Below, piece after piece: positions 3,420-30,435 of a stretch of DNA of 64,000 bases. This stretch comes from Gemmatimonadaceae bacterium (GTDB lineage: Bacteria; Gemmatimonadota; Gemmatimonadetes; Gemmatimonadales; Gemmatimonadaceae). The stretch spans positions 512,001-576,000 of the forward strand of contig JBHYGA010000005.1 of assembly GCA_051859245.1 (NCBI GenBank), given 5' to 3'. Made by a program: the position numbers and the translations under genes. Below the pieces are notes generated by a model. The model was not told where the DNA came from. It saw only the letters and a list, made by a program, of their open reading frames with translations, and searched no databases. Numbering within the stretch: position 1 is the first letter of the stretch; each line of letters begins with the position of its first letter.

Positions 3420-3812
3420 TCAACAGTTCACGTATGTGATAGGATTTGCCGCGCCGCGCTTCCAGTTTGCGGCGACCGATCTTCCCACGTAGCGGTCACG
3501 AACCGTCTCCTGCGCGAGCGTTCCAGTGAACTCCCAACGACCGGGGCGCTGAACGTCCTCAAGCGGACGCACGTTATAGTCGGTGGTGCCCGCGGGATGC
3601 CATTGATCGATCTCGTAGACCTCGCGGACGATCCCGTCAAACACCGCCAGCGCGAACTTCGCACCGCTCCGGCGCGGGCCGACCACCCACACGCCACGTG
3701 TGACTTCGTACAGCTGCTCGGCGGACATGTCGGGCCGATAGGCCCGTTGAATGCGAATCAAAATGGCGGCGTCGTTAATCACGACAGGAGTGGCGACTTC
3801 GTTCGTTCGCAT
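3420..3812 (-). CDS. Uncharacterised protein resembling the C-terminal domain of LEM-3-like GIY-YIG proteins (no GIY-YIG domain present)
   Basis: 130 aa with the pattern YEVTRGVW..G..R....FALAV..GIV.EVY....W....RWEFTG, recalled from that family and not HMM-confirmed. Confidence 0.55.
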   Translation of the reverse strand: MRTNEVATPVVINDAAILIRIQRAYRPDMSAEQLYEVTRGVWVVGPRRSGAKFALAVFDGIVREVYEIDQWHPAGTTDYNVRPLEDVQRPGRWEFTGTLAQETVRDRYVGRSVAANWKRGAANPITYVNC

Positions 3813-4001
3813 AGGTCATTTTTCTCGATCTTGATGGAGCGTTGGTGCAGCGTTGTCAACGAATCGCACGCAGCTGCGAGCGCCGCCTCGTCAGCATTCG
3901 TGTGGTCATATGCAAATGAATAGCACTGAAAACGGCGGGCAGCGACGGCGGGCGAGCGCCTCGGCGAATCGATTGATCGCCGCCGCGTGAAAAGTACGTC
4001 G

Positions 4002-5318
4002 TTATTCGCCGGTAGGTCCTCGCCGTAGTTTCGCGTCGTAGTTGCCCTTGCCACGACGCGCGTTGTGCGTGCGTTGCATCTGATACTTCGCGTCGCGTTC
4101 GGAGTAGTCACCGTCCCGATACCGCGCCTCCATTTGCGCGAGGTCGGCTGACTCGGCCAGCATCTCCGATGCGAACGCGACGTCGCTATATGCCGGGGAG
4201 GAGAGAATCCACTGCTGCGCGTCCTGCATGTGCTGCGCGGCCGCGTCGGCATTGCCTTGACGTTGTTCGCGAGCCGCGGCTTCACGCGCCTTCGCGGATC
4301 GGGCCATGACGATGGCGCGTTCGACTTCGGGCACCATGTGCGCCTGGCCATCGAGCGTGGCCGCGATGGGCAACGCGAGCGTGCGCTGCTCCACGCCTCC
4401 GCCGTTGGTGAGGACAAACGCTGAGACGCGCAGCGTCGCGAGAACGACAGGTTCGTTGATCGCGACGGTCGACGCGTTCGCCGGCGCGAGCAATTCGAAT
4501 AGCAACGGCTTGGGTTCACTCGCATACAGATCGCCCAGGTCGAACGTGAACGAGCCGTTTTGCTGCGTCGTGGGCCAGTCGGAGTGCACCGTGAGCATCT
4601 GGACCTCGGGGTGGAGCGTGAGCGTCACCGTCAGCCCCTGCGCTGCGACATTGAGCAGATTTCCGAGTTCCTCGGCGAAGACGTCCTGCGCCTGATCCGG
4701 CCGTTCGACGTACCACGCATTGCCGCCACCGGCGTCGGCCATGGCGCGGAGCAGATCGTCGTCGTAGCCCTCGCCGACGCCAATGGTAGACGTGGTGATG
4801 CCGAGCGTGCGTGCGGTGCGCGCGAGATCGACTAGCGTATCCCGGTCGACGATGCCCGCGTTAGCGTGGCCGTCGGTGAGGAGCACGATGCGTCGCGACG
4901 TGCCGGCGGCGCTGGACAGGAGTTCGGCGGCAGATTCCATGTGCTGACGACCTCGCAGCCACCCTCCACTGAGATTCGTGCTGCCGCCCGGCTCGATCTC
5001 TCGCAGGCGGTCAGCCAGCTGGTGTTGGTCACGGCACCGCGCGGGATCGGCCAGCGTCTCAATGTCCTGATCGAAGAGCACCGCCGAGACAACATCGTTG
5101 GGGTGCAGGCGTTCGACGGCGCGTGCGGCGGCAGAACGGGCCGCGTGCAACGGTGCGCCGGACATGGAGCCGCTGCGGTCGAGTACGAGGGAAAGACCGA
5201 GGGGCGCGCGGGACGCGGCGGTGGGAGCCGTGCCGGCGATGGAGAGCAGGGCCCGCACGACGGTGGTACCGGGGGTGGTCGCGTGCGGCTGGTGATCGAG
5301 GAGGAGCGTGGTGTCCAT
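4002..5318 (-). CDS. von Willebrand factor A (vWA) domain protein
   Basis: MIDAS motif DRSGSM, GSTNL, LLTDG. Start moved to MDTTLLL (ATG 5318) because the longer ORF overlaps the HD gene. Confidence 0.9.
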   Translation of the reverse strand: MDTTLLLDHQPHATTPGTTVVRALLSIAGTAPTAASRAPLGLSLVLDRSGSMSGAPLHAARSAAARAVERLHPNDVVSAVLFDQDIETLADPARCRDQHQLADRLREIEPGGSTNLSGGWLRGRQHMESAAELLSSAAGTSRRIVLLTDGHANAGIVDRDTLVDLARTARTLGITTSTIGVGEGYDDDLLRAMADAGGGNAWYVERPDQAQDVFAEELGNLLNVAAQGLTVTLTLHPEVQMLTVHSDWPTTQQNGSFTFDLGDLYASEPKPLLFELLAPANASTVAINEPVVLATLRVSAFVLTNGGGVEQRTLALPIAATLDGQAHMVPEVERAIVMARSAKAREAAAREQRQGNADAAAQHMQDAQQWILSSPAYSDVAFASEMLAESADLAQMEARYRDGDYSERDAKYQMQRTHNARRGKGNYDAKLRRGPTGE

Positions 5319-5346
5319 GCGCGTGTCCGTTGTGAGGGATACGGGC

Positions 5347-5368
5347 AGGTTAGGGGGAGGGTCTGACA
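5347..5368 (-). promoter_or_regulatory. PafBC/RecA-NDp-type promoter motif upstream of the vWA gene
   Basis: Minus strand TGTCAG-accctccccc-TA-acc-T, ending about 29 nt before the ATG. Confidence 0.7.
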
Positions 5369-5970
5369 GGGGCGGTTGGGTGCGCGACACCTTCAATGAC
5401 CGCGAGCAGCCGTTCCATTTCATCAAGCAGGGGCCCGCTGAATCCGGCCGTTCGATACGCGTCGCGTGCTCCCGCGTAGTACCAGACTTGCCGATCCCTG
5501 GGCGCGTTGAATCGCGACCACACCTCGTCACCAGTGCGCTCAATATCGGCCACGATCGATCGCAAGTTGTCGACCTTGTCGGCCACAGTGACGCGCAGAT
5601 CCGCGGGGTTCGCCGTGCGCGCGTGTGCCAAATACGATTCTTTGCGCTCAATCCATGGTCTCTTTGGGCCGCCTCTGTAGCCCGGGCCGGTGTCGCTGCT
5701 CAACTCCACGATGCGGCGCACGCGTTCGCCAAACTGCGCCTCGATCTCGTCGGCACTGATTTCATCGCCGTGATCCTCTACGGCGTCATGCAACAGCGCG
5801 GCGACGGCTTCATCTTCGTCACCTCCATGCCGTTGCACGAGCTGACAGACGCCGAGGAGATGCGCCAGCGTGGGAATCTGCGTGCCCTTGCGTGCGTCGG
5901 TAGCATGCAGCTTCGCGGCGAGTGCGAGAGCTGCAGCGAGGCGAGGGGAGAGGGAAGCGGTATCGGCCAT
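5350..5970 (-). CDS. RelA/SpoT-type HD-domain hydrolase (small alarmone hydrolase/MESH1-like)
   Basis: H..D.RKG...P...HL, AALLHDAVED, FGERV..IV, PW..RK..YL, ADKVDN. Start MADTAS at 5970. Confidence 0.85.
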   Translation of the reverse strand: MADTASLSPRLAAALALAAKLHATDARKGTQIPTLAHLLGVCQLVQRHGGDEDEAVAALLHDAVEDHGDEISADEIEAQFGERVRRIVELSSDTGPGYRGGPKRPWIERKESYLAHARTANPADLRVTVADKVDNLRSIVADIERTGDEVWSRFNAPRDRQVWYYAGARDAYRTAGFSGPLLDEMERLLAVIEGVAHPTAPVRPSP

Positions 5971-6105
5971 GCGTTTTGGGTTTGAGGGGGGCGGACGCAG
6001 CTCGCGTACTTGGCAACAAACTATCTCGGAAAAAATCGTGGTGTTTTCCACCGTCAAAACGCCAGCGACGTGTGGGTGTACTTGCACGAGCACCGACCAC
6101 GACGC

Positions 6106-6585
6106 TTAACACCGCCGACGAATCGGCATGTCAGGAAAGCAAAATTCCCCATGCGAGTTACTGAACGCCTGATAGTGCAGCTGTTCTATACCCTCGATTC
6201 CATACACCTCACGCAGCGTACAGATGAGCAGTGCTGCGACCTGCCGCACCGATGTGCCAGCGGGTACGTCGATGAAAAAGTTGGGGCTCCCATTGGGATC
6301 GTTGTACTTCGCCACCAGTTCCGGTGCATCATCAGTCGCTCGACGCCACCCTAGTTCGGTCAAGTAGCAGTACTGCTCGACCGTGAGCGCCGCACTCGGC
6401 GGTTCAATGTACGTGTTGCTGACCGCTTCAATGCGGAACGCCCCGGTAGTCGTACCAGCTACCTGCACAAAGTGATTGACATGACGACGCGCAATGATCA
6501 TGAAATCGCCTTTCCCCAAGTCGCCGAGCGCACGCGCGACCGCTGAAGTGAGCGATTCCCAGTGCTCTTCAGTACTTGTTGTCAC
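6106..6585 (-). CDS. TY-Chap-like (T3SS-chaperone/YbjN-like) domain protein
   Basis: FVQVA....FRIEAVSNTYI...LGW...PNF...A.L...TLREVYG pattern. GTG start at 6585 with GGAG 7 nt upstream. Confidence 0.6.
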   Translation of the reverse strand: MTTSTEEHWESLTSAVARALGDLGKGDFMIIARRHVNHFVQVAGTTTGAFRIEAVSNTYIEPPSAALTVEQYCYLTELGWRRATDDAPELVAKYNDPNGSPNFFIDVPAGTSVRQVAALLICTLREVYGIEGIEQLHYQAFSNSHGEFCFPDMPIRRRC

Positions 6586-6704
6586 GCACGATCTCCATTC
6601 GAAGGACACCGAAAATTTCGCAGCGGGGTCTGAGAGCGCCCGCGTCAACATTTGTCGGTGCACGCAAATGAGATCACGCGCATGCACCGACCGTCGATCG
6701 CTCC

Positions 6705-8684
6705 TCAGCGCCGACGCATGATCTGCGGCGTGTCTACAGCACGAGCGCTCGCGTTCGCACCAGTGAGCATTGGAACGTTCGTATCGGGTAACGCTCGCGC
6801 GCGATCACGGCGCAGCTGTTCAAGTTCCGTTGACAGCTCAGCGATGGATGACGGCATGGTGGAGCTTGCGCCAATAAACGCGTCCGCCAAGACACTCTGC
6901 AGGTTGTTGCCAGGGCAAGCCTCAAGAAGCGGCGTCAGTCTCGGCCCGAGCCCACTCACCCGAAACGACACGGCCTTTGCGCTCCCCCGGAACTCACCGA
7001 ATGCAAACGTGAACAACCGCGAGCCTGCGACCTGAAAGGCAAATGACTTGACGGAGGCATTGGTCCCTGTTTTACCGAGCGAGCTAAAGTTGTCGAACTC
7101 AAGCCAGGTCTCAGCCACTGGTGTTCCGCCATCAAAGGAAAACGCCACGGTACCGCTCGCGGTGACAAAACGATCCGTGGCGACCCATGCCACAAACGAC
7201 CCAGTCGACGAGCATACAAAAGTGAGCTCAGGATATTCGGATGAGCCAAACTGGTTTGAAATCTGATTGTCGGAGGGAAGCGTGGTGAATACGATGCCGT
7301 TACCGCTGAGCGACAACCAGTCGTACGCGGTGATTGGACTTTCCCAGGCCACTCCATCAATCGTCGCCACAATGGTGATCGTACCGGTACCGGCCGGAGT
7401 GAAGAGTCCCGCTGGCGTGAACGTGCCTGCCGAAGGATTCGTCGTGCTCCAGGAAACGGGGCGAGAGATCGTGTTCCCATCTGACGTGCGTGCAGTCACC
7501 GAATACTGATAACTGTCGCCAACCTTCACGCGCGCTGTGCCAGTGAGCGTCACACTCGTCACGGCAGATCGAACTTGTATCACGAGCGTGCCAGTACGAC
7601 CCTCGCTGCTCGCAGAGATCGAGGCCGTGCCCGGAGCGACAGCGCTCACCAGCCCAGTGGCGGACACGGTGGCAATGCTGGAATTACTCGTGCCCCACAC
7701 CACGGTGCGGTCTGTCAGCATCGCTCCATTCACGTCGCGTATTGTCGCTGAAAGTTGCGCCGTGGCGCCGGGTGTAAGCGAACTCGCCCCGGAGATCGAA
7801 ACAGTTGCAACGGGCACGGGGAGCACTGTGAGTGTCGCACTACCCGTCTGACCCTCGCTGGTGGCAGAAATGCTTGTCGTACCCGGAGCGACCGTGGTAA
7901 CTCGTCCGCTGGCATCAACCGCGGCGACCGACGTGTTCGATGATGTCCATGCCACCACGCGGCCGTCCAAAGGGCTTCCGTTGGACGATCGCAACGTTGC
8001 CGATGCCGACGTAATCGTGCCCGCGACGACTGATGCCTGCGCGAGCGTCACCGTCACGGAGGCGACAGGCGGCGGCGTCACCCTGAGTGACGCACTCCCC
8101 GTTCGTCCTTCGCTCGTAGCAGTGATCGTCGTTGTTCCGGCGGCGAGCGCGGTGACTGTTCCGGTAGCGTCAACACTTGCCACCGACGGCGCTGACGAAC
8201 TCCATGCTACGCTGCGACCGGTGAGCACGGCGCCATTGTCGGAACGCAGTTCTGCCGTTGCCGACGTGCTGGTACCCGCAACGATCTGTGGGTTCGATAG
8301 ACTCACGGTTACGGTCGCCACAGGAGGCAGTGTCACAGTCAGTGACGCACTTCCGGTTCGTCCTCCGCTCGTCGCCGTGATCGTCGTTGTTCCCGCGGTC
8401 AGTGCTGTCACGGTACCGGAGCCATCAACACTCGCCACTGCTGGCGATGACGAACTCCATGTGACACTGCGGCCACTGAGAACCGTGCCGTTAGCGGCTC
8501 GCAATTCTGCGCTTGCCGACGTGCTGGTACCCGTCACGATTTGTGCGTTCGTAAGCACCACCGTCACCGTGGCCACCGCGGGTGGTGATGGGTTCCCTGG
8601 TGGGGCGACAGGATTGTCAGTACCGCCACCACCACACGCCGTAACGAACAGCAGTGCCGCACCGCACAGTAACGATCGCTTCAT
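6705..8684 (-). CDS. Lipoprotein with 4-5 bacterial Ig-like (Big_2) repeats and a C-terminal VasI/TagO-like domain
   Basis: Signal peptide with lipobox FVTAC, then ~85-aa repeats V.WSSS.P.VASVD..G.VTA..AGTTTITATS.G. C-terminal domain PELTFVC...FDGG...W...F.VSGL..LTPLLEAC. Confidence 0.85.
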   Translation of the reverse strand: MKRSLLCGAALLFVTACGGGGTDNPVAPPGNPSPPAVATVTVVLTNAQIVTGTSTSASAELRAANGTVLSGRSVTWSSSSPAVASVDGSGTVTALTAGTTTITATSGGRTGSASLTVTLPPVATVTVSLSNPQIVAGTSTSATAELRSDNGAVLTGRSVAWSSSAPSVASVDATGTVTALAAGTTTITATSEGRTGSASLRVTPPPVASVTVTLAQASVVAGTITSASATLRSSNGSPLDGRVVAWTSSNTSVAAVDASGRVTTVAPGTTSISATSEGQTGSATLTVLPVPVATVSISGASSLTPGATAQLSATIRDVNGAMLTDRTVVWGTSNSSIATVSATGLVSAVAPGTASISASSEGRTGTLVIQVRSAVTSVTLTGTARVKVGDSYQYSVTARTSDGNTISRPVSWSTTNPSAGTFTPAGLFTPAGTGTITIVATIDGVAWESPITAYDWLSLSGNGIVFTTLPSDNQISNQFGSSEYPELTFVCSSTGSFVAWVATDRFVTASGTVAFSFDGGTPVAETWLEFDNFSSLGKTGTNASVKSFAFQVAGSRLFTFAFGEFRGSAKAVSFRVSGLGPRLTPLLEACPGNNLQSVLADAFIGASSTMPSSIAELSTELEQLRRDRARALPDTNVPMLTGANASARAVDTPQIMRRR

Positions 8685-8740
8685 CGGGCCTCTCCTCAGT
8701 CATGCTTGATGCACAACGGCATTTCCGTCATACCAAGTAC

Positions 8741-8762
8741 AAGCTGAGGGAGGGGTCTGACA
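8741..8762 (-). promoter_or_regulatory. PafBC-type promoter motif (variant) upstream of the Ig-repeat lipoprotein
   Basis: Minus strand TGTCAG-acccctccct-CA-gct-T. The spacer is nearly identical to the 5347-5368 copy. Confidence 0.6.
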
Positions 8763-11093
8763 CTACATGTTGAGCGCCGAGCGCAATCGATGAATGCGCT
8801 CCCGCAGCGCGACATGCATTGTTGCTGGCGCGATCACTTCGGCGTCTCCGCAGTACTGAAAAACGTGGCGCACTGCCCACTCCGTGTCAGCGAGTGGATG
8901 CGATACCGTGAGTGACCCATCGTCAGCGAGCGCGACTCCTTCCCGTTCGGCAATCCATCGGGCGATAGTTGGCGAGTAGCGAACCACGAGCGCGGCGTGC
9001 ACACCGTTCATGAAGGCGCGGCCGCGTTGAACAACAGCATCGATAGAGAAGCCGTCAGGAATGACGTACTGTTCGCCGGTTTTCTGTGCTTCGAGCACGC
9101 GATCAAGTCTGAACAGGCGTAGCTGCTGTGCCCGTCTGCAGTGGGCCACCATGTACAGACACGCTCCGCTTGCAAGAATCGCATAGGGTTCGACCTCGCG
9201 CGTTTCAGCGACATTGGCGCTTGACTTATGGTAGTGAATTGTGAGCACTTGCCGCTGCTGCAGCGCCAACCGCACTGTGGCCAGCGTAGCCAGGTTGCCC
9301 ACATCACCAGCCGATACCGCAAATCGATCGACGATCGGGTCGTTTCCAATCGCAACCACAACGCGTTCGAGTCTCGCCCGCGCCCGTTCCAGTACGGCGT
9401 GCTCGTTTGGGGTGCGCAAATGCTTGAGCACCGAAAGGCCGAGTGTGATCGCACAGACTTCCGTTGCGACGAGGCGCATGGGCCGCCTGAACGCTGTTGT
9501 GACAGCGGAAATCGTTTCGCGGTCGATGAAGAGTTGCACGCCCTCCACAAATCCGCCCGGTGTGTCATAACGAGCGACCAGCGCAAAGACATCACTGCGC
9601 AGCGTGTCCGCATCGATACCCGTGCGTTGCACGAGATCCTGTATAGCATGCGAATCACCGCTCGCGAGCAGTGGCATCGTTTGCAGGATCCGCCGTAACT
9701 GCGCGGCTGCTGTTTCCGTTACGCGTGCTACTCGCGCGGCCGGTTTGGTGAGCACTGGTGCGAGTGCGGGCGCCTGTGTCCCCAGCGCCGCTGCCTGCGC
9801 CGCACCGGTCTCAACAGACGTTGCCAAACGTTCGAGTGCGTGGCGCACGCCGTCTACAAGGCTGGTCGGCGACTCGGGAATCGCGTCACCGGCGAGCGCG
9901 AGCAACCAACGAATAAAGGCATCTTCTCGTCGAACGGAGAAGCGGCGACGTTCGGTACCGTCGGCGGCGGGCGGCAGTGTTTCCCCCAGCTGCAACGCGG
10001 CGCGTGCCGCGTCATCGTCTGCGCGAAAACGCACGATCACCTCGAGCGGCGGGTCTTCACCAAGCTCCCACGCCTGTCGCGACGCCGCGTGCTCGCGCAA
10101 GCGAAAGTCTGACGGCACGTCGAAGTCTGGCGTTTGTGCCTGCTTCGTGTTCAGCTGCGGCACACGGATACGATTCAGTCGAAAGTTCCGGAGTGCCGCC
10201 GCGTCGACATCTCTCGCCACGAGATACCAGTGACCGCTCTGAAAGAAGAGCCCCCACGGTTCGACCGCACGTTCACGCACCTCATTTCGACCGAAGGTGT
10301 GATACTCGAAACGCACGCGTTTCCGTCGCTGCATCGCGTCTGCGAGCGCCGCAAAAACTGCCGCGTCATGCTGCGCCGCATCATGCTGCACACGCGGTAC
10401 TCCGCTGCTCACGTGCACCGCGCCTTGCTGCTGTTCGCTGCCCGTTGGTCCCACCGGCAGATCGAACGCGAGCTTCCTGAGCGCGCGCGACGCTTCCGCA
10501 GCGAGCATTGGATCACCGAGCTCACGGGCACAGGCCGCAGCATCAACGATGGCCTGGAGCTCGTCGGGCTCGAAGGCCAACGTGGCCAACGCAGCGTACC
10601 CATAACCTGCAATCGCACGCGCACGCTCGGCGGTAGAGCCCAGCGTTTGCTGCGTTACGGTTTGCGTTGAAGCCTCTGGCGCAACCAGCACAAGATACGG
10701 CAGGTAGAAATCCGTGCGCCGCAAGCGATACGCGCCTTCCTCATTGTCGTCGTGGTCAGCAACAGTTTCGATGGGTATGCCTAGTGCGCGCAGTTCGTCC
10801 TTGTCGCGTTCGAACATGCGTTTGGTACTGTCGCGTCGTCGCTTGATCTCGGCGAGCTGTGTCGGATCGTTTGTGCCAGCCACATCGGGCCATTCGTACG
10901 CCGGCACCTCGGGTGCGAGCTGCTCGAAGGTGACTTCCTTGCGACGCGCGAGAAGAGCGGCCACCAGATCCACCCATCGCTGTAGTTTCGCGTTGCCCGC
11001 GCTGGCCGGTGGCAACTCCAAGTCGTCGGCAGCTTCGTCAGCGCTGTTGTGTTCGCGAGCCGTCGCGGAGGATCCGGGTTGTGTGGACATCAT
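8763..11093 (-). CDS. PafBC-like fused double HTH-WYL-WCX transcriptional regulator
   Basis: PafB-like half: KRMFERDKDELRALGIPI, VEPWGL, GHWYLVARD, RNFRLNRI. PafC-like half: FRRPMRL, VEPYAI, LRLFRLDRV, V.QYCGDAEVIAP. Start MMSTQP at 11093 is inferred. Confidence 0.9.
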   Translation of the reverse strand: MMSTQPGSSATAREHNSADEAADDLELPPASAGNAKLQRWVDLVAALLARRKEVTFEQLAPEVPAYEWPDVAGTNDPTQLAEIKRRRDSTKRMFERDKDELRALGIPIETVADHDDNEEGAYRLRRTDFYLPYLVLVAPEASTQTVTQQTLGSTAERARAIAGYGYAALATLAFEPDELQAIVDAAACARELGDPMLAAEASRALRKLAFDLPVGPTGSEQQQGAVHVSSGVPRVQHDAAQHDAAVFAALADAMQRRKRVRFEYHTFGRNEVRERAVEPWGLFFQSGHWYLVARDVDAAALRNFRLNRIRVPQLNTKQAQTPDFDVPSDFRLREHAASRQAWELGEDPPLEVIVRFRADDDAARAALQLGETLPPAADGTERRRFSVRREDAFIRWLLALAGDAIPESPTSLVDGVRHALERLATSVETGAAQAAALGTQAPALAPVLTKPAARVARVTETAAAQLRRILQTMPLLASGDSHAIQDLVQRTGIDADTLRSDVFALVARYDTPGGFVEGVQLFIDRETISAVTTAFRRPMRLVATEVCAITLGLSVLKHLRTPNEHAVLERARARLERVVVAIGNDPIVDRFAVSAGDVGNLATLATVRLALQQRQVLTIHYHKSSANVAETREVEPYAILASGACLYMVAHCRRAQQLRLFRLDRVLEAQKTGEQYVIPDGFSIDAVVQRGRAFMNGVHAALVVRYSPTIARWIAEREGVALADDGSLTVSHPLADTEWAVRHVFQYCGDAEVIAPATMHVALRERIHRLRSALNM

Positions 11094-11188
11094 CGTGTAT
11101 TGTCGGCGGTTGCCTGCATTCGAGCGCCCCGTTTGGTGCGTGCGAGCCGGGTCAGGGAAGGGATCGCACATGACCCGAACAGAAAACG

Positions 11189-11210
11189 AAGGTACGGTCG
11201 AGCTCTGACA
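11189..11210 (-). promoter_or_regulatory. PafBC-type promoter motif upstream of the PafBC-like gene (possible autoregulation)
   Basis: Minus strand TGTCAG-agctcgaccg-TA-cct-T, about 95 nt upstream of the inferred start. Confidence 0.65.
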
Positions 11211-11389
11211 GTGGCCTGCGAGCCTCAGGCCGTAGCCCCGGTTTGGCTGTGGGTAGCCAAGTGCGCAACAGATGCTTATCGATCGCCAAGTCAGACGCGG
11301 GCTAGGCAACCGACACACCGCGAGCCTGCCGCAATCGGACTGCTTCGTGTTTAGGCTTGGCGGCAAAACTTCGCTTCGTCTGCCTGATA

Positions 11390-11485
11390 TGCAATCACCG
11401 ATTCCAAGGTGCTTACCTTAAGTAGGTGTTTACGGAACCCGGTGCATCGCAATAGAGTGGCCGTCAGCATCATGTGTCGTTATGA
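11390..11485 (-). mobile_element. Truncated/degenerate attC site after the RNase H-like gene
   Basis: R''-like TCATAAC (11485-11479) contains the stop codon and is 1 mismatch from the complement of this cassette's start GTTGTGA. An internal hairpin 11390-11405/11434-11451 follows. No L'/R' arm found. Confidence 0.5.
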
Positions 11486-12094
11486 CTCTGCCGAACGAAC
11501 GACAAGGCAAGGCTGTGAGAGGATCTCTAGGTCACGGCTCCAGCCTGTTGCAAGCATGGCTGCGCCAATTAGGGCGAGAGGAAGCTCGCAGGTAACGTCT
11601 GAGGTGGGGGCGCCACCAGCTGTGCGCTTGAGAAAGCCGTTCACGGCGATCATTGCATCATCGCTATGATTCGCTCCCTTCGCTCCGCCCGAAACAAACC
11701 CCTCCCAGAAAAGCACGCCTTCGTTGGCTTCATTGAAGAGGCGCCAGTCTATGAATCCCGGGGCCGCGTCGTGGAGTTCACGAATCCTTCGCAGGATCCA
11801 AGTGACTTGGGTCAGCCCTGTAGCAAGCGCAGCGGCCCCGGCGCCTGCGGACCAAGGTCGATTGCCCTCGCCCGTGCGCGCCGCGGTGAGGCCGATGGGG
11901 TCACAAGAAACTGGCACGAAGAGGGGGCACTCGAAGCCGAGTGCGACCTTTTGCCCCGAGGTCAGCGAACTCGCAACGGCGCCGGCCAGCGTTTCAGGAT
12001 CAGAACCTGTCTGCCAACCGCTACCGACGCGCCAGCCGGCCCACCCGAAGCGGCCCGTTCGCACCGAGCCGATATCTGCGCAAGCTATAAGCAG
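11480..12094 (-). CDS. DUF429-like RNase H-fold putative nuclease, CTG start; cassette gene
   Basis: The frame extends to CTG at 12094 with a perfect SD TAAGGAG 8 nt upstream, giving MLIACADIGS. Also ALGFECPLFVP, LFWEGFVSG and HSDDA (acidic residue pattern). Confidence 0.65.
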   Translation of the reverse strand: MLIACADIGSVRTGRFGWAGWRVGSGWQTGSDPETLAGAVASSLTSGQKVALGFECPLFVPVSCDPIGLTAARTGEGNRPWSAGAGAAALATGLTQVTWILRRIRELHDAAPGFIDWRLFNEANEGVLFWEGFVSGGAKGANHSDDAMIAVNGFLKRTAGGAPTSDVTCELPLALIGAAMLATGWSRDLEILSQPCLVVRSAES

Positions 12095-12112
12095 CTCGGT
12101 GTCTCCTTATTG

Positions 12113-12252
12113 TCACAACCCTCGCGTTCTGCAGCGAACGCCCACACGGAAGCAAGCGGGGCGTTCGCACTTTCCTTTCAGACTACAGCGAACGCACCGC
12201 GATCGCTACACGGGTCTTCGCCGCGTTTGACTGCAGCAACGCAAGGTTAGCC
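12113..12252 (-). mobile_element. Integron attC recombination site (140 bp)
   Basis: R'' GGCTAAC-5 nt-L'' GTTGCTGC ... L' GCAGAAC-6 nt-R' GTTGTGA. Two extrahelical bases lie 6 bp apart (GTT-G-CTGCAG-T-CAAACGC vs GCGTTCG-CTGCAG-AAC). Inner stem 12156-12168/12188-12200. The G-T wobble forms on the bottom (+) strand. Confidence 0.88.
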
Positions 12253-12398
12253 TGCGGCTGGGTCCAGTACAGGTACATGGTTCACACTTTGCTGTAGTAC
12301 CAAACCCTGCTCGGTAGGTTCGACGAGCGCACGCGTACGATCACCGGCGCGCCGTCACAAAAAAGGACTGTTAACCATGTGCCCGGACATAGTGTCAC

Positions 12399-13373
12399 CT
12401 ATCTTCCCGTGTTCACTGTGCGTGCTCGTGCGGGGCTACGTGGATTCTTTCTGGATAGTCGCACTCGCGTGCAGACTACTCGACCATCCGCGACTACATC
12501 CTCCCGACGATCCCTTCGACTCACTCGCAAGCAACCCACCTCAGGGAATCGCATAGCGATAAGGATTGAGGCGAGCACGTGCGGCTTCGGACCCATGGGG
12601 ATCAAGTTGACATCGGCAGAGCGTCGATGCGGATCAATGGTCTCGGCAAGATACCGAAATGCCTGTTCTACGCTTGTCAGCGGAAGCCCGAAGGAGCGCG
12701 CAGCTTGAGACACGATTTCTCGATTCTCCTCCTGAACTCGCGCGGCGTATCCATCGGGGGCGTCCTGCTCTGCAAAGAATGAGTAGATCAGATCAGGCTC
12801 CATCTGGTCTAGAACACAGAGGGATGCCAGACTGTCAAAGCCGAGGCCGATGATCGCCACTGACCGATTGTGCGCAAGCGCTCCTCCTTCGCAGCCCGGA
12901 ATGCACAGTACATTGTCAATGACCATAGGCGGAAGAGTAGTCTGGTGTCTTCCCACGGCGTAAACGAAGTCGATGTCGACGGTTTCAAGAGCACTTGCAA
13001 CTCGAAACCAATTCAGAACCGCTGCGTACCAGAGACGCGACATCGCACTGTAGTCAACCAAGATCTTGAGCGCGGACTTGGCGTTAGACTCTGCGTCTCT
13101 CAAGCACGAATAGATGGCGATATCGTCACTTCCTGCTATGACCTTCGGAAGTACGCCAAAAGCACTGCGAAAAAACTCGTCGTTTGTCTTGCGGACGATA
13201 TCGTCGGCAACCGTGGAAAAGCCGACTACTGAGATCTTTCCGAGACGCGCAGCTTCCAGCTTGCCGGCGATAAACGATGCGCGGACCTCATACCCACTCG
13301 CGAAAATGCTGGCGTCGTAACTTCCGGCTTGCACTGCGGCAAGGTCAGAGTCCTCGATGCTATCAATCAACAT
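12399..13373 (-). CDS. Uncharacterised protein with two Rossmann/CARF-like domains
   Basis: ATG 13373 with GGAGG upstream. Halves ASGYEVRA...ILVDYSAMSR and GLGFD...LIPMGPKPHVLAS. Overlaps the ATPase stop by 11 nt. Confidence 0.65.
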   Translation of the reverse strand: MLIDSIEDSDLAAVQAGSYDASIFASGYEVRASFIAGKLEAARLGKISVVGFSTVADDIVRKTNDEFFRSAFGVLPKVIAGSDDIAIYSCLRDAESNAKSALKILVDYSAMSRLWYAAVLNWFRVASALETVDIDFVYAVGRHQTTLPPMVIDNVLCIPGCEGGALAHNRSVAIIGLGFDSLASLCVLDQMEPDLIYSFFAEQDAPDGYAARVQEENREIVSQAARSFGLPLTSVEQAFRYLAETIDPHRRSADVNLIPMGPKPHVLASILIAMRFPEVGCLRVSRRDRREDVVADGRVVCTRVRLSRKNPRSPARARTVNTGR

Positions 13374-15189
13374 GAGAATCGTCGCCTCCGAACAAGTCGC
13401 TCTGCTCGACAAGGCGTGCGGCGCGTTCTTCTTTCGAGGCAGACTGATATGCGAGAATCCAAGTCAAGCTTCGCGCGCGTCCGCGTCTAGGTAGTATGCG
13501 AAAGTGTGGCGCGAGAACGTACGCTAGATGAAACGTACCGCTGCGAATTGGCATCTGATCCGGATTGCTTTGGCCAGTGTTTGGGAAGAGTAGTCCCAGA
13601 CCGACAGCGCGTTCGATGAGCTTCCAGTGTTCGCTGCTTACCGATGCATCGACGATAAAGCTCGAGATCTGGTCCGTGCTTATGGGGCGGTTGTGCAGTG
13701 AGTCGCGCATGAATGAACCGACACGCTCAATGAATGTGAAGAGTTCCGGGCCAACCTCCGGCTCGCTTTGGATTCTTGAGAGGGTAGTAGTGGAGAACGC
13801 GATCAGGTTTCTTGTTTGGTTCGCCTGCGTTATGGACTTAATCCTTCTTCCGTCTCGCCAGCGTTCCTCAACCAAGAAGCTGTTAATGATCCTGATGAGT
13901 CTCCGTGGATTTGCGTCGCCGCACCGCACGATCATGCTCGCGCCAGAGTAAACTTTCAACTCATCGCGACCAGTCGTCCTTTGAATTGCCTCGCGGAGCT
14001 GTATCGCGCCATGCATTTTGCGACTGATCTGATTTCTAAACTCGGACGGATTCGGTACAAGACGATCCGCTCTGGCGATTGTTTGCTCATCCGCATGCTT
14101 TCTTAGGAGCTCCCAATTCGCGGAATCTTCATCCCACGATTCACTCTGTGGATCAAGAAGTTCTGAGCGTCCAAAGAGCGCGTTTAAGGTAACTCCCTGA
14201 TACTTCGCGCCTGACGCGGATGCTCGCTTCCGAAATAGCAAGTCAGCGAACTGCCTCCCGTTGTCTTCCTTCACGCCGGAGAAGCCGATTGGATCGCGAT
14301 CGATGTAGACGTATTCAAAATCGTGACCAACATTCAAACCTACTCCAAGATTGGTGTCTTGGGTCAGGTGGTAGTACGGCATGGTCGTAATCTTGAAGTG
14401 CAGATTGCCACTGTTGCTTCGAAGATACGAGTTAAGGATTCGCTGGTGTTCGAGTCCCAAGAACTCCGCCTCGTCGAGGCATAGTAACCATGAGCAGTCT
14501 GCAGGCAGTTGCAAAGCTACGGCACTTAGTGCGATCGCCCTGCGCAGCGGCGTGAAGAGAGGTAGGTCAAAGCCAATTCCTGCTGGCTCCTCCGCTTCAC
14601 GAAGAGATCCGGTCGCACGTACCCTCACCAATTGCTGCTGCTTCTGATGCTCACTTGCTTCGATTTGTGCTTGTAGCGCGCGAATACTCTCTAATGGCGG
14701 GAACTCCGGCATCCATGCCACGCAAAGCTGCCCGACTATGTGCCCCTCAAGACGAGCCGCTTCACCACGATCAGAGGAGTATCTGTCTAGGCAGCTACGC
14801 AGGGTGACGAGGAACGCCAAGCAGCTCGCGACGTTTAGCCGCCACTGGAAGAACGACTCCAGCTCGACTTCCGTTTGCCACGTCTTGTTTTTGAGTCCAC
14901 CAACCCACTCAAGGCTCGTTGGCAGATAGATGCCGATGAACGCTCTCGACTGGATTGCGCTCTTAGCGCGCGGATTTTCGAATCTGGACAGATGATCATG
15001 TGAGAGCATCTTCGCCAGCACAGTCTTGCCCGATCCGCGGGCGCCAAGAACGATATGGTTTTTCGGAGAAAGCAACCGCCAGAACGACCTCGTGTCGACA
15101 AAGGTGGCGACAACCTCATCGCGCGTCAGGTTTCTTGCGTTTTCTATCTCGAAAAGATCTCGCCGGAAGTCGCTGCTTGTCTCAACCAT
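13363..15189 (-). CDS. ORC/CDC6-like STAND P-loop ATPase with C-terminal winged-helix-like region
   Basis: N-terminal FEIENAR, Walker A GARGSGKT, Walker B LLCLDEAE, NPRRLIRI, C-terminal LIERAVGLGLL...FHLAYVLAPHFRI. Confidence 0.8.
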   Translation of the reverse strand: MVETSSDFRRDLFEIENARNLTRDEVVATFVDTRSFWRLLSPKNHIVLGARGSGKTVLAKMLSHDHLSRFENPRAKSAIQSRAFIGIYLPTSLEWVGGLKNKTWQTEVELESFFQWRLNVASCLAFLVTLRSCLDRYSSDRGEAARLEGHIVGQLCVAWMPEFPPLESIRALQAQIEASEHQKQQQLVRVRATGSLREAEEPAGIGFDLPLFTPLRRAIALSAVALQLPADCSWLLCLDEAEFLGLEHQRILNSYLRSNSGNLHFKITTMPYYHLTQDTNLGVGLNVGHDFEYVYIDRDPIGFSGVKEDNGRQFADLLFRKRASASGAKYQGVTLNALFGRSELLDPQSESWDEDSANWELLRKHADEQTIARADRLVPNPSEFRNQISRKMHGAIQLREAIQRTTGRDELKVYSGASMIVRCGDANPRRLIRIINSFLVEERWRDGRRIKSITQANQTRNLIAFSTTTLSRIQSEPEVGPELFTFIERVGSFMRDSLHNRPISTDQISSFIVDASVSSEHWKLIERAVGLGLLFPNTGQSNPDQMPIRSGTFHLAYVLAPHFRILPRRGRARSLTWILAYQSASKEERAARLVEQSDLFGGDDSHVD

Positions 15190-15194
15190 GTTTG

Positions 15195-16418
15195 CTAATT
15201 GAAAAGGAGAACGATGTCTTCTGGTGTATCTCCGTGCGTCCGAAAATCGAAGTGCTTTTCTATGTCGCGAAGAACCTGTAGGATCGTCTCAGCCGGTAAG
15301 TATTTGAGGTCGGAGCATTCGGCGACGATTTCATGCCAGCTGCAGTAAGCCTTGGGTCCCCTTCTAGCGTTAATGATGGGTGAGACAAGGGACCGGAGTT
15401 CGGAGATTGTGTCGTGTTTGCCGAATGGGCGCCGATGCTCGATGCCGTGATGAATCCGACTTTTTTGCCAGCCATTGGAGAACAGATACGACCAGCTCTC
15501 CACGGTCCCGCAAATCCGCCCCGACCTCGTTCGGCCATCAACCGCAATCACGTGAAACTGATTTGCGACGATGCCACTCCACCTGGTGCTGATCAGAGCA
15601 GAGAGACTTCCTGAGCCTAGGATCGCCAGCGGTGGGTATGGTGTTGTCGCGTACGTATTGAAGTGTGGCTTGTGCTTGTGACCATGAACGAGTAGATCGA
15701 TCTCGTGGCGCCCGAGCATCTTTAATAGCGCGTCAGAATTGACCATCAGACTAAAGTCTGGCGAATCAGGCGCAGGATCCGAGTACTGCACCGGATGATG
15801 ATGCACCAAGAACACTCTCAGTTGTCCATTGGCCGGCGGACGCGCGGACAGCAGTCGGTCTAGTTCTTCGAGCGACTTTGTAGAAATGCTACCGTGGTGT
15901 GGCTTCGTATCGGGATTGTCGTTCCATGATGAGTTGTGAGCGAAGAGTACCGCGTGTTCGTCCTCCCAAAAGCCGAGGTACGGTTCATCAACCAAGCTCG
16001 TCGAACTCTTCGAAATACATCTAGACAAAACTTGACTGGTTCGGGTTAGCGGAACGTACCGCTGCGCCGCTCCTAGTCCGGTCTTGTCATCAGGATATTG
16101 AGAGAACGACGTCCAGTTTACATCGTGATTCCCAGGGACAAATGCAATTCTCTCTTCGGCGACTCCTAGTGCTTCCGCGATCTCTAGCAGAAACTCTGAC
16201 GCGAGTACGAATTCATCCGGTTGGGCTTTGTTGCTCACGTCACCAGGGCAGAGTAGATAGTCCGCCCTTATCGTGTTCTCGCGAAGAAATTTGATGAAGG
16301 TCGATCGATAGTTGCTTTCGATCTGATGTGTCGAGGGACTTGGTGACAGATCCTTGGCGCGAGCACCAGTACCGACGTGGAGATCGCTTGCAACTGCCAA
16401 ACGGAGTGGCTTTTTCAT
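15195..16418 (-). CDS. Calcineurin-like metallophosphoesterase with C-terminal extension
   Basis: All five motifs present: SDLH, PGD, GNHD, VHHH, HGHKH. Start MKKPLRLAV at 16418, 10 nt after the MTase stop. Confidence 0.9.
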   Translation of the reverse strand: MKKPLRLAVASDLHVGTGARAKDLSPSPSTHQIESNYRSTFIKFLRENTIRADYLLCPGDVSNKAQPDEFVLASEFLLEIAEALGVAEERIAFVPGNHDVNWTSFSQYPDDKTGLGAAQRYVPLTRTSQVLSRCISKSSTSLVDEPYLGFWEDEHAVLFAHNSSWNDNPDTKPHHGSISTKSLEELDRLLSARPPANGQLRVFLVHHHPVQYSDPAPDSPDFSLMVNSDALLKMLGRHEIDLLVHGHKHKPHFNTYATTPYPPLAILGSGSLSALISTRWSGIVANQFHVIAVDGRTRSGRICGTVESWSYLFSNGWQKSRIHHGIEHRRPFGKHDTISELRSLVSPIINARRGPKAYCSWHEIVAECSDLKYLPAETILQVLRDIEKHFDFRTHGDTPEDIVLLFN

Positions 16419-16428
16419 TGTGCGTTCG

Positions 16429-17250
16429 TCAGCGCTTCGCGATAACAGAGTTTGTGAAGACCAGTTCTGCAGCGCGGCGCCTATGCTTCGCAAAACCAGA
16501 TATGTTTCGCTGGACGAACTTTCGTTCTACATGCCAGCCATTGAACTGCCGCCTTGACTCAGCTGAGTCGGCGTACGATAGGACGAACGTCGCCCCCAAC
16601 GCGTTGATGCAGTGCAGGAGTTCTGACAGACGCTCCAAATCTTCCAAACCGAACGTCGCTGGCCCGTACTGACGAAAGATCCGACGATTCTCAACCGCAT
16701 ACGGCGGATCTAGGTAGACGAGGTCTCCCGATCGTACGTTGTCGCGAACAACGCGTTCAAAGTCGCCACAGACAATCTTGCAGGATCGGAGCCGAACGCT
16801 GCATTGCTGAATCTGTGTAAAGGAGGGCAAACGGCCGGTTCGCGTAGGTGCATAAGGTACGTTGAACTGCCCCTGAAGATTGGTCCTATAGAGTCCATTG
16901 AAGCAAAAGCGATTCAGGTAGACTAGCCTTGCCGCACGTTGCGCGCTTGTAAGATTCGAGTAATCCTGACCTCTCAGTGAGTTGTACGTCTCCCTGGATT
17001 GCGGCAGACGGTCAAGCTCATGAGACACAGCGTCTGGAGTATCTCTTACAGCAACGTATAGATTCGTGAGTTCCTCGTTCGAGTCCGACAGCAGTGCTCG
17101 TTTCGGATCGAGTGCAAAAAATAGACTTGCCGAGCCTGCGAATGGTTCGACGTACCGAACGTGCTGCTCCGCGTTCCAGTAGCGCACTAGTGTGCTTATT
17201 AGGCGTCGCTTGCTGCCCGCCCATCGAAGTATCTGGAGCTCTGACTTCAC
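16429..17250 (-). CDS. Dam-family (D12 class) DNA N6-adenine methyltransferase
   Basis: LRWAGSK, YVEPFAGS, FNGLYRTN..G.FNVPY, VYLDPPY. GTG start. Confidence 0.92.
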   Translation of the reverse strand: MKSELQILRWAGSKRRLISTLVRYWNAEQHVRYVEPFAGSASLFFALDPKRALLSDSNEELTNLYVAVRDTPDAVSHELDRLPQSRETYNSLRGQDYSNLTSAQRAARLVYLNRFCFNGLYRTNLQGQFNVPYAPTRTGRLPSFTQIQQCSVRLRSCKIVCGDFERVVRDNVRSGDLVYLDPPYAVENRRIFRQYGPATFGLEDLERLSELLHCINALGATFVLSYADSAESRRQFNGWHVERKFVQRNISGFAKHRRRAAELVFTNSVIAKR

Positions 17251-18406: not shown

Positions 18407-19861
18407 TCACCCCACCCCCACCAACCCCCGTCTCGACGCCATAACGTGATCCCGCGTCACCGTCCCATCCCCCAGCTCCCGCGCATCTCTCTCGGCCGCG
18501 TCCCTCAACCGCTTCGCCACTGAAATCCGAATCAACACCGGCTGCGCATCACACAACTCATCAAGCAACGCCTTCGCGTCATCACTCCACGGCAGCTCCT
18601 TATGCAGTCTCGCCGGCGTCGCATCGATCTTGTCCATATCCGTACCCAGCGGCAGGATATGAAACAGCGCATCAAACAGCTGATTACACACTTCCTGAAT
18701 CAGATACGTCGCGCCCGAATACCCCATGAACGGCGTGCCCGTATGCCGGCGAATAATCGCCCCAGGAAACGACGCCGGAATGTACATCGCGCGCGACCCA
18801 CTCTCGGCCAGATACATGCGCTCGTTGTACGAACCAAACATGATCAGTGGCGGCGTAGCTTTAATCGCCGCACGCACGGCCTGATTGTCCGGCTTTACAC
18901 CAGGCCTGCGCGCAAAGCTGAAAGTGCAGGGCAGCCCCATCTCCGTTTCAAGGAAATGGCGAATGCCACGCGCGTGCGTTTCGTTCGCCACAATCGCAAA
19001 ACTCGCCGTGCCGAAAAAATCTTGCGTGACCGACCGCCACAAATCCCACAACGGCTTGATGGTGGTGTGCTTTTCTTTTTCAATGAACGGTTCGGGATCT
19101 ACACCCAGCAACTCACCGAGCGTGCGCAAAAACTTGGTGGTGCTATGCAAACCGATTGGTGCCTGCAAATACGGCACATCAAGATCTTCGCACAGCAGGC
19201 GACCAAACTCGCGGTACATGCAGATGTTCACATCAGCATCCACCAACCGCGGCACTTCACTCAAATGCGCGCCGAGCGGGAACACCATGTTGATCTCCGC
19301 GCCAATGCCTTCCACCATGCGGCGCACTTCGGCGAGATCACTCCACGTGTTGAAGTAGCCGTACATGGGCCCGATAATGTTCACGCGCGGCTTGGCGCCG
19401 GGCAAACGCTCCGACTTGTTGGGACGCACACCTTTTTTGAGGCCGTACTCCGTCCACAACCAGTAGATGGCACGGTTCGCAGCCTGCCACTGATCTTCGT
19501 CAATCGTGCGCGGCAGAAAACGCTGAATGTTGGTGCCTTCCGGCGTGACACCACCACCAATCATTTCGGCGATTGAACCGGTCACCACTACGGCCGGCAA
19601 CTCCGGATCAAGCGTGGAGTGCGCGCGTTTCATGGCGGCTTCAGTACCGGTCTGACCAAGCTCTTCTTCGCCGAGTCCGGTCACAACAATGGGCAGTTCG
19701 TGCGGCGGCAGTGCGTCGGTGTAGTGCAGTACCGATGTCACCGGCAGGTTTTCGCAGCCAACCGGCCCGTCAATCACCACCTGCAAACCCTTGATCGCGG
19801 TAAACGCATACACTGCGCCCCAATACCCACCAGCGCGATCAAGATCGAGAATCAATGTCAT
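18407..19861 (-). CDS. bchZ: Chlorophyllide a reductase subunit Z
   Basis: [22 protein letters not shown]-terminal [18 protein letters not shown]. Position after bchY. Confidence 0.97.
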
Positions 19862-21519
19862 ATCATCTGCTCCGCCTGACGCTTCTTATTCAGGCGCGCG
19901 AGGTGGCGTTTGTAGTGTTCACGGAACTCCGGACGGTCCACCGGCACTTCTTCCCATACGCCGGCCGCGTAACCCGAACCTACGTCACCAAAGAAGTTCT
20001 TCATTTCCAGGAAGCGCGCTTTGTTGCCAAGCGCGGCGTTCACAACCGTGGCCAGTGAACCCGCACCAGCCGGGCCCATGAGCGGCCGCGCCGAAATGAG
20101 ATTGGTAAAGTAGAGCGCGGGAATCATCAGCTCTTTTGCTTTCTGCACCACAGGCGTGGTACCAATCGCGAGGTCGGGCTCAAACTCCTGCATGGCCTGC
20201 AGATCATGTTCGAGCGACGCGCGGAACTGCACACGCACACCACGCGCTTCCAGCCAGTCACGATCGGCCATGTTGTACGGCGTGCGCGGGCACGCCGAGC
20301 CTACGTAGCGCACATCGGCGCCGCTCTCAATGAGCAAACGCGCCACCAGCAACTCCGAGCCTTCGTAACCACTCATGGTAATGCGGCCTTTGATGGGCCG
20401 AGATGCAAGCGCACCCTTGATCGCCGGCAGCACGCGATTTTTTGCTTCGTCAATTTTATCGCGCGACACGCCGGCCATTTGCCCGATGTTTTCGAGCCAC
20501 GCTTCGGTACCGTCGTAACCAACCGGCGCTGAACCAACAATCGGTCTGCCCGCCGCTTCAAACTCGCGGAAGCTCGCCGTGTAAAACGGATGAATCGCGG
20601 CCACACCAACACAGTCGAGCGCGGCGTACAGTTCACGCCACTCACGCGTTGGCACAACCGGACCGGCCGCGAGTCCCATGGGCTCGAGCATCATGCCAAT
20701 GCCAACGGGGTCCACCGGAAACATTTCGCCCACCAGTGTGACCGTGGGCTTTTCCGCGCGACCGCCACGTGGTGCCTGCACGGGACCCTGTTCGGCCTCG
20801 AGTCGCGCGTACTTGAGCATGGCGCCGGCGAGCACGTCTTTGGCTTCGGCGTGCGTGGGCACACCAAAACCCGGCACATCAATGCCCACAATGCGCACGC
20901 CGTTGATTTCTTTCGGCAAGATCTGCAGGGGAACGCCTGATGCCGTGGGTACGCACAAGTTGGTAATCACAATTGCATCGTACAGCGCCGGATCGGCCAT
21001 CTCGTGTACGGCGTCGCGAATGTCTTCGAACAACTTGCCGGTCACGAGCGACTCGGAGTTGAACGGCACATACCCAACCGTGCGCCGAGCGCCGTAAAAG
21101 TGCGACGTAAACGTGAGACCGTACACGCAGCACGCACTGCCGCTCAGAATCGTGGCCGTGCGACGCATGCGCAGACCAACTCGCAGCGAACCAAACGCGG
21201 GGCACATGCTCTGCGGCTGATCGTGCGGGCCTTTGGGATAGTCGGCCGCGTAACGGTCGAGCGTTTCGCTCTTGCCCGCCGCACGTGCAGCCGCGCGCAT
21301 TTCGCCTGCACCGGAGTGACAGCCGATGCCGTCTGTTACGGTAGCCGCCACGTTGATGTCTTCCACAATCGGCAGCGCACTGCGCGTGCCCGTGTTTTCG
21401 CCGACTGCAGCCGGCGACGGCGCACACCCAAGCCCACCCGGCGCGTCACCATCATTCGCCATGGGCGTTGCGCCGGCATCGTCGTACGCAACCTCGTTCC
21501 TTCGCACATCAATCGTCAT
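19858..21519 (-). CDS. bchY: Chlorophyllide a reductase subunit Y
   Basis: [41 protein letters not shown]. Confidence 0.97.
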
Positions 21520-21530
21520 GGCGCGCTGCC

Positions 21531-23470: not shown

Positions 23471-23522
23471 TGAACCTCATGGAGCGATCGGAAGGACTAC
23501 GTCCCTGGGGGGACAGACAAAG

Positions 23523-23566
23523 TGTAAACTGAACGTGACACCTTGCCCTGTCAACAAATGCCGATG
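23523..23566 (-). promoter_or_regulatory. PpsR/CrtJ box pair at the bchC promoter
   Basis: Perfect TGT-N12-ACA at 23523-23540. A half-site 8 bp away contains TTGACA on the minus strand (23554-23549). Confidence 0.8.
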
Positions 23567-23599
23567 ATCCCGTTCGGAAAGGCTCCGAACGGGGGCCAA

Positions 23600-24841: not shown

Positions 24842-24968
24842 CGGGGACACCCGCAAATGGGGCGAGCTGGCAAACTTGGCGCGTGGGGAGCCCAGGTAGG
24901 TTGGCGCGCTGGATGCGCGATCTTGTACCGTGGCGTACAAAGGCGACGATAGTGCGCGCCTCAGAAAG

Positions 24969-25011
24969 TGTCAAGCGAAGTGTACACTTGCGGTGTAAGG
25001 GCTTAATTACC
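24969..25011. promoter_or_regulatory. PpsR/CrtJ box pair between divergent crtF and bchI
   Basis: TGT-N12-ACA at 24969-24986 and TGT-N12-ACC at 24994-25011, 7 bp apart. Confidence 0.8.
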
Positions 25012-30433: not shown

Positions 30434-30435
30434 CG

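Follow-up and report, generated by a model that had tools for sequence, protein, structure and literature searches.

A stretch of 64,000 nucleotides (nt) from a Gemmatimonadaceae bacterium (GenBank assembly GCA_051859245.1, contig JBHYGA010000005.1, positions 512,001 to 576,000; hereafter the window) encodes a fused PafB-PafC-like regulator, and three sites close to this gene resemble the promoters that PafBC activates in mycobacteria. From the evidence described below, we consider it probable that the three sites are PafBC-type hybrid promoters, combining a -26 element with a -10 element, and that the regulator controls its own gene. This suggests that the PafBC switch, so far described only in Actinobacteria, also works in Gemmatimonadota.

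An earlier note, made from the letters of the window alone, had reported three copies of TGTCAG-N10-YA-N3-T, all on the minus strand, two of them with near-identical C-rich spacers. Both statements were confirmed by reading the sites, and a pattern search recovered the same three copies, with no fourth match on either strand of the window. The sites and the regulator gene are as follows (scores in bits are from a weight matrix).

Site 1: 5347..5368, minus strand, TGTCAGACCC..., with the -10-like hexamer TAACCT; 23.1 bits.
Site 2: 8741..8762, minus strand, the full TGTCAGACCCC element with a CA-type -10 (CAGCTT); 23.0 bits.
Site 3: 11189..11210, minus strand, TGTCAG, a 10-nt spacer and the -10-like hexamer TACCTT, upstream of the pafBC-like gene; 21.3 bits.
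Fused PafB-PafC-like regulator: 8763..11093, minus strand, 775/776 amino acids (aa) from the ATG at 11090/11093 (802 aa from the ATG at 11171), with two HTH-WYL-WCX modules (HTH, helix-turn-helix).

The surrounding region holds five co-directional minus-strand genes, identified with Pfam as encoding a vWA protein, an HD_4 protein, a TY-Chap3 protein, a lipoprotein-like protein and the regulator. Site 1 overlaps the last codons and the stop of the HD_4 gene, its 'TA' lying within the TAA stop codon (5352-5350), and ends 28 nt before the ATG of the vWA gene (5318). Site 2 begins immediately past the TAG stop (8765-8763) of the regulator gene, with 56 nt from its end to the ATG of the lipoprotein gene (8684). 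From the end of site 3 the distance is 17 nt to the in-frame ATG at 11171, the start of the 802-aa protein in the database, and 95-98 nt to the ATG pair at 11093/11090. Since a 775-aa homologue with 79% identity aligns from its residue 1 to the second ATG of this pair, the leader after site 3 is probably about 90 nt long.

Among the approximately 128,000 positions of the window that were scored with the weight matrix, the best one after the three sites was at 6635-6614 on the minus strand (TCTCAGACCCC..., 9.7 bits), near the 5' end of the TY-Chap3 open reading frame (ORF). Neither the invariant G nor the pyrimidine of the -10 is present there, and it was regarded as a chance match. The ranking is partly circular, as the 33 sites used for training had been chosen with the same core pattern; the non-circular part of the match is the A at position 7 and the C at positions 8-10, which are common to sites 1 and 2. 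A TGTCAC-type match at 23540, before a bchC-like gene, scored 7.3 bits and was also regarded as chance. Two other explanations of the sites were tried and rejected: an RNA element (0 matches at E up to 0.1 in an Rfam scan of 3800-12400) and a larger repeat (no repeat family includes the sites, and sites 1 and 2 have unrelated flanks).

The earlier note had called the regulator gene a WYL gene; its domains, structure database matches and contact residues identify the product as a fused homologue of PafB and PafC. Pfam found WYL in two stretches (2.1e-40), WCX in two stretches and HTH_PafC at residues 465-577. The sequence matches in PDB were PafBC chains only, the best being 6sj9 (fused PafBC of Arthrobacter aurescens; 6.5e-27), together with 7p5x (RNA polymerase complex of M. 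smegmatis; PafB 1.8e-17, PafC 4.7e-17), and both halves of the regulator align to PafB and PafC chains of 7p5x. According to the structural report on M. smegmatis (PMC8635444), the two guanines in the GTC triplet are read by PafB R46 and R50, and backbone contacts come from K52, R56 and Y76. In a phmmer alignment to this chain (7p5x_AY), R92 and R96 of the regulator correspond to R46 and R50, and K98, R102 and Y122 to K52, R56 and Y76; the regulator has D88 and S89 in place of PafB E42 and A43, and K5, R8 and S40 are outside the alignment. The recognition helix and the following turn are nearly identical in the two proteins. The WYL arginines described as binding single-stranded DNA (ssDNA), R211/R214 in PafB and R201/R204 in PafC (PMC11804915), align with R305/R308 and R662/R665 of the regulator. 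An alignment of 42 homologues has R96, K98, Y122, R305, R308, R662 and R665 without exception, and R92 in at least 90% of the sequences; R102 is neither invariant nor in the list of residues kept in at least 90%. Every regulator homologue with a named source is from Gemmatimonadota. As judged by these alignments, the regulator has the sequence-level features of the PafBC family.

For comparison, one search of a genome collection with an alignment of the family gave 71 pafBC loci (L-numbers below), 44 of them from Gemmatimonadota (within L001-L049) and 27 from other bacteria, mostly Actinomycetota. Matches were counted on both strands of the 44 Gemmatimonadota loci (568 kilobases, kb) and in 20 dinucleotide shuffles. 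The pattern TGTCRG-N10-YANNNT occurred 35 times, against 7.4 times in the shuffles (maximum of the 20, 13). A variant with C at position 6, recognised from the promoters of vWA genes, was found 24 times in the form TGTCRC (8.7 in the shuffles, maximum 15), which gives 59 matches with G or C at position 6, against approximately 16 in the shuffles. When the spacer was varied from N5 to N16, the 59 matches at N10 compared with 5-22 at each other length; with the strict form TGTCA[GC]-Nk-TANNNT there were 22 matches at N10 and 0-4 at the other spacers, and the actinobacterial control loci had 5 at N10 and 0-2 elsewhere. The consensus published for mycobacterial PafBC promoters is tGTCgg(N10)tA(N3)T (PMC8635444). 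Because N10 is so strongly preferred, the two half-motifs are coupled at the distance of this consensus. To this extent the proposal that nearly the same motif is used outside Actinobacteria holds: the motif is conserved beside pafBC across Gemmatimonadota, with the mycobacterial 10-nt spacing. A crude strand control on ORFs carries little weight: the motif was found on the coding strand within -200..+150 of 24 of 431 ORFs, and on the opposite strand of 11, with rough gene calls that missed known sites.

A profile of the 33 sites from other genomes had A at position 5 in 29, and either G (19) or C (14) at position 6. The core is followed by A at position 7 in 26 of the 33 and by C at positions 8-10 in 20-24. 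The first base of the -10 was T in 24 sites and C in the other 9, so that the CA-type hexamer of site 2 is a normal variant. No -35-like consensus was seen in the columns upstream of the profile sites, and a generic sigma-70 scan with 16-18-nt spacing returned 0 pairs of -35 and -10 elements in 3800-12400 of the window. The T-G-T-C core is present in all three window sites, which in their sequence have the features of PafBC promoters.

The placement of site 3 before the regulator's own gene, pointed out in the earlier note, recurs in other genomes. With a relaxed core, the motif was found at most 350 nt upstream of pafB(C) in 14 of the 44 loci, 3 of the 44 reaching less than 100 nt upstream of the gene; another 7 loci (L003, L004, L022, L026, L027, L041 and L049) have it before a co-directional gene whose end lies just ahead of pafB. 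A motif immediately after pafBC, the position of site 2, is also present in L001, L011, L014 and L031. Three loci (L010, L032 and L042) have the ATG of pafB 6-7 nt past the final T of the motif, with the conserved first helix beginning within the next 5-7 residues and the next in-frame start falling within this helix. No other start of these pafB genes is plausible, and the three look leaderless, as expected from the predicted +1; this indirectly favours the start position given in the earlier note, about 6-8 nt after the final T. In L016, an AddB-like gene and pafB are separated by two motifs facing away from each other, at 9855 (minus) and 9911 (plus), which form a divergent promoter pair. 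Separately, a conserved protein of approximately 390 aa without a Pfam family adjoins pafBC in nine loci (L009, L019, L020, L022, L024, L026, L027, L029 and L038); it is absent from the window.

Apart from the regulator gene, the vWA gene is the one gene following the sites that could be traced in other loci.

vWA protein: 4002..5318, minus strand, 438 aa, Pfam VWA 4.3e-18, with an ArnB/Sec23-24-core-like fold.

Its orthologues adjoin pafBC in 5 comparison loci, with 35-44% protein identity, and the motif is upstream of 6 of 6 orthologues (window included), starting 45-113 nt before the start codon; this agrees with the earlier naming of the gene as a target. In the alignment of these upstream regions the only invariant columns are TGTCA, ACCC and the A and T of the -10. 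An AlphaFold model of the protein, made from 33 sequences, had a pLDDT of 86.7. Foldseek matched it to the ArnB chain of archaeal ArnAB (8s05, 1.2e-20), to a vWA protein of the actinobacterium Catenulispora (4fx5, 2e-18), and also to the inter-alpha-inhibitor heavy chain (ITIH) and Sec23/24. All but one of its best 120 homologues are 55-86% identical, every one with a named source is from Gemmatimonadota, and the homologues are often on the same contig as the regulator; its look-alikes in a protein atlas are generic VWA clusters, commonest in Actinomycetota. The idea that the protein is a Ku-like end binder was rejected, as there was no Ku entry among the structure matches listed. A reading of the targets as a defence system was likewise dropped: PADLOC had no match for the vWA, HD_4, TY-Chap3 and lipoprotein products, and matched the regulator with generic WYL models only.

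The note had further suggested that the targets are not DNA-repair genes. This is correct for the window, where the motif precedes the vWA gene, the lipoprotein operon and pafBC; it fails for the relatives. There, the motif is found before genes of AddB-like PD-(D/E)XK proteins of approximately 1040 aa (6 of 9) and of an SF1 helicase with RNase_H_2 and nuclease domains (2 of 4), and also before genes of RmuC and of DUF2800-type and DUF2779-type nucleases (PD-(D/E)XK); further matches precede genes of ARPP-1 and DUF6361 proteins and of several proteins without a family. As read from the positions of the motif, the local regulon across the phylum is dominated by DNA-end-processing enzymes. Since the motif precedes helicase-nuclease and nuclease genes in the relatives, the system looks like a DNA-damage response. 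In two actinobacterial loci, genes of DUF2800-type nuclease homologues near a fused pafBC (L047, 1344, minus; L061, 5518, minus) have TGTC..-N10-TANNNT just before their starts, so that this class of target is common to both phyla.

In the mechanism that we propose, the binding of the regulator to the sites, the activation of transcription, the step on sigma and the start positions are drawn by analogy from the mycobacterial system. Each promoter would consist of TGTCAG as the -26 element, in most cases with ACCCC after it, of a spacer fixed at 10 nt and of a housekeeping-type -10, (T/C)ANNNT, with no -35. The regulator would sense ssDNA through its two WYL domains; the recognition helix of the first HTH (HTH-B), with R92 and R96, would bind the GTC core of the -26 element, and the second HTH (HTH-C) would bridge to region 4 of the housekeeping sigma factor, replacing the contact with a -35. 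RNA polymerase would then start approximately 6-8 nt past the final T. In the window, the regulator is predicted to switch on its own gene, as a positive feedback, and two further units, one made up of the lipoprotein / TY-Chap3 / HD_4 genes and the other of the vWA gene. DNA damage is the most likely stimulus, because the same signal precedes DNA-end-processing nucleases and helicases across the phylum.

Several points weigh against reading the sites as PafBC-type promoters with autoregulation. What was observed in Gemmatimonadota (the positions, conservation and spacing of the motif, the homology of the regulator and its conserved contact residues) comes entirely from sequence analysis. The count of sites in the window is weak, with 3 matches against 0.65 expected and three or more in 4 of 100 shuffles; with R at position 5 the expectation rises to 1.36, and three or more were obtained in 14 of 100 shuffles. 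The pattern has only about nine specified positions, and in DNA rich in GC a pattern with so little information could match three times by chance. We find this very hard to credit, given that each of the three is found on the coding strand 28-98 nt ahead of a start, all within 6 kb around the regulator, that related loci show a 3- to 5-fold enrichment and the preference for N10, and that the motif is conserved before orthologues that share as little as 35-44% of their protein sequence. The significance of the sites rests on their placement and on the other genomes, not on the count in the window.

Other points concern single sites and the feedback on the regulator. The -10 of site 2 is of the CA type, and the 71 pafBC loci offer no orthologous site to compare with it, as no orthologue of the lipoprotein was found near pafBC elsewhere. 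The motif is missing both directly before pafB(C) and before an adjoining upstream co-directional gene in 23 of the 44 loci, 3 of which have less than 100 nt upstream. Short distances between motif and ATG can arise by chance when the first start is taken, and it is the three leaderless-looking cases that were checked against the conserved N-terminus. In mycobacteria, PafBC levels are described as constant under stress (PMC6789036), and autoregulation would thus be a departure from the model system.

The sampling and the contact with sigma also count on this side. All the loci were selected for pafBC, so the enrichment covers the surroundings of pafBC, and the promoters of recA and uvr genes are not in the sequences. 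Given that the motif was sampled near pafBC only and that the binding of PafBC to it comes from sequence comparison, the motif might serve another factor, such as an alternative sigma or another regulator, and co-occur with pafBC as part of the same stress regulon. This seems to us improbable: the core agrees with the PafBC consensus in the literature, GTC triplet included, the regulator and M. smegmatis PafB have almost the same recognition helix, and a 10-nt gap to TANNNT does not fit the 16-18-nt spacing of the sigma-70 type. Regarding sigma, residue 67 is the first one of M. smegmatis PafC in the alignment, so that the sigma-contacting D62 of HTH-C is outside it, and the gene of the sigma factor is outside the window. 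The first of these facts fits an explanation in which the PafBC-like protein does bind TGTCA[GC] as a conventional activator or repressor, with no re-aiming of sigma region 4, the distance to the -10 reflecting the placement of the operator. Other WYL regulators also give it some support, as DdaA is reported to bind approximately 50 base pairs (bp) upstream of the start without sigma adaptation, and CapW and BrxR are described as repressors (PMC12392091). We nevertheless judge a conventional regulator unlikely, though less so than the involvement of another factor. The mycobacterial 10-nt spacer is sharply preferred, both HTH modules and the PafB contact residues are kept, and no -35 was found, so a replacement for the -35 contact is needed; a repressor site that overlapped the -26 and was paired with a strictly spaced -10 would still require a -35 that was not seen. 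On balance, PafBC-type hybrid promoters remain the probable explanation of the three sites.

The unit that follows site 2 comprises three genes.

Lipoprotein-like protein: 6705..8684, minus strand, five Big_2 Ig-like domains (Pfam 4.5e-48) and a C-terminal region without a known family; the first gene after site 2.
TY-Chap3 protein (YbjN/T3SS-chaperone-like): 6106..6687, minus strand, Pfam PF22552 4.8e-17; begins 17 nt past the lipoprotein stop.
HD_4 protein (RelA/SpoT-type hydrolase-like): 5350..6093, minus strand, Pfam HD_4 5.8e-21; start at GTG 6093 or at an ATG near 5970.

The N-terminus of the lipoprotein-like protein ends in a Cys that is followed by glycines. Within its gene, tandem copies of approximately 252-255 nt at 7591-8487, 63-73% alike, correspond to the repeated Big_2 domains. 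TY-Chap3 is probably co-transcribed with the lipoprotein gene, and the short gaps point to an operon of all three genes. The HD_4 protein has a partial match to TIGR00691, below the cut-off. None of the 71 loci had an orthologue of any of the three proteins near pafBC, the single exception being a weak Ig-domain match in L013.

Several other regions of the window were annotated. Directly upstream of pafBC, 12399-16493 (minus strand) has a lower GC content (0.54-0.56) and encodes a CARF6-like protein (PADLOC 3.2e-51), an ORC-CDC6-like ATPase (Pfam 4.1e-91) and a metallophosphoesterase that resembles the 'anti-phage phosphoesterase' model with a score below the cut-off. It looks like a defence or signalling island, and the weight-matrix scan found no PafBC-type motif in it. 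Part of a photosynthesis cluster is located at 18407-28875, with bchZ/Y/X-type genes (two nitrogenase-like reductase subunits and a NifH-like protein), an ADH-like protein, an O-methyltransferase, the I and D subunits of Mg-chelatase, and DUF3623; from these bacteriochlorophyll genes the organism is phototrophic. The region 29183-40530 encodes four MacB/FtsX-type permeases, an ABC ATPase, a HlyD-type adaptor and an outer-membrane efflux protein. Finally, a gene at 61651-62735, whose product has a RES domain (Pfam 1.4e-32), shares some sequence with the end of a small ORF that lies upstream on the opposite strand; the two could be a toxin-antitoxin-like module.

To our knowledge, the adaptation of sigma has been shown structurally in M. 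smegmatis only. CarD and RbpA are actinobacterial partners. In the reports on the subject (PMC12392091, from 2025; PMC8635444), PafBC is treated as a damage-response activator of Actinobacteria, and our literature searches, some judged from listings, found no paper linking Gemmatimonadota, Gemmatimonadetes or Gemmatimonas with PafBC or WYL regulators. With more reserve than for the three sites themselves, we tentatively propose that sigma adaptation by PafBC may not be an actinobacterial speciality, and that Gemmatimonadota may have a second, phylum-wide damage response of this kind, triggered by ssDNA. Its distinctive traits would be a longer -26 element, TGTCA[GC]ACCCC, positive feedback on the regulator, the ArnB/Sec23-24-like vWA protein as its most constant local output and a new damage-response effector and, in this phototroph, a captured operon of lipoprotein, chaperone-like and alarmone-hydrolase-like genes. 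If the mechanism does operate with the same 10-nt geometry in this Gram-negative-type phylum, it would be independent of CarD and RbpA, and either its age or its mobility would have been underestimated. It would then become possible to read the damage regulon of Gemmatimonadota, a phylum with cultivable phototrophs, from sequence. The vWA protein and, in this window, the lipoprotein operon are named as new candidate outputs.

Among known systems, DriD of Caulobacter and DdaA of Moraxellaceae are similar in being ssDNA-sensing WYL activators of an SOS-independent damage response outside Actinobacteria; as described, they differ in being homodimeric single-module proteins with other binding motifs, and the upstream site of DdaA is not in a -26 arrangement (PMC12392091). 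BrxR and CapW share the WYL sensor, and the window regulator also adjoins a defence-like island. However, these two are presented in the same report as single-module repressors of an adjacent defence operon, whereas the island genes of the window have no motif and the regulator has two modules.

The fused PafBC of Arthrobacter aurescens (6sj9) and the actinobacterial 'class C' fusions (PMC6789036) resemble the window regulator in having both halves in one polypeptide. Among the Gemmatimonadota loci that are complete, pafB and pafC are in separate frames in 31 of 34 and fused in 3 of 34. The window carries the fused form, of which approximately 85 were found in a search of a protein collection that admitted lengths of 426-1358 aa only; identity to the actinobacterial fused forms is approximately 27-34%. 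The fusion may have arisen independently of those in Actinobacteria.

The usual context of PafBC in Actinobacteria is an operon with pafA and Pup-proteasome genes, although this is not strictly defining. Pfam scans of the window ORFs found no pafA or proteasome families, and the identified neighbours of pafBC in Gemmatimonadota loci are nucleases, helicases and the vWA protein.

The closest likeness is to mycobacterial PafBC as described in PMC8635444 and PMC11804915: two HTH-WYL-WCX modules with the GTC-reading and the ssDNA-binding WYL arginines, promoters with a TGTC(A/G)(G/C) core, a 10-nt spacer to (T/C)ANNNT and no -35, and helicase-nucleases among the targets, which here are found in the relatives. 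The Gemmatimonadota system differs from it, besides the phylum, in its mostly A position 5 and its G or C at position 6, and in an A-C-C-C(-C) extension after the core that is not part of the mycobacterial consensus as given in PMC8635444. It differs also in the motif before the regulator's own gene, as opposed to the constant levels described for mycobacteria (PMC6789036), and in having the vWA gene as its most constant neighbouring target.

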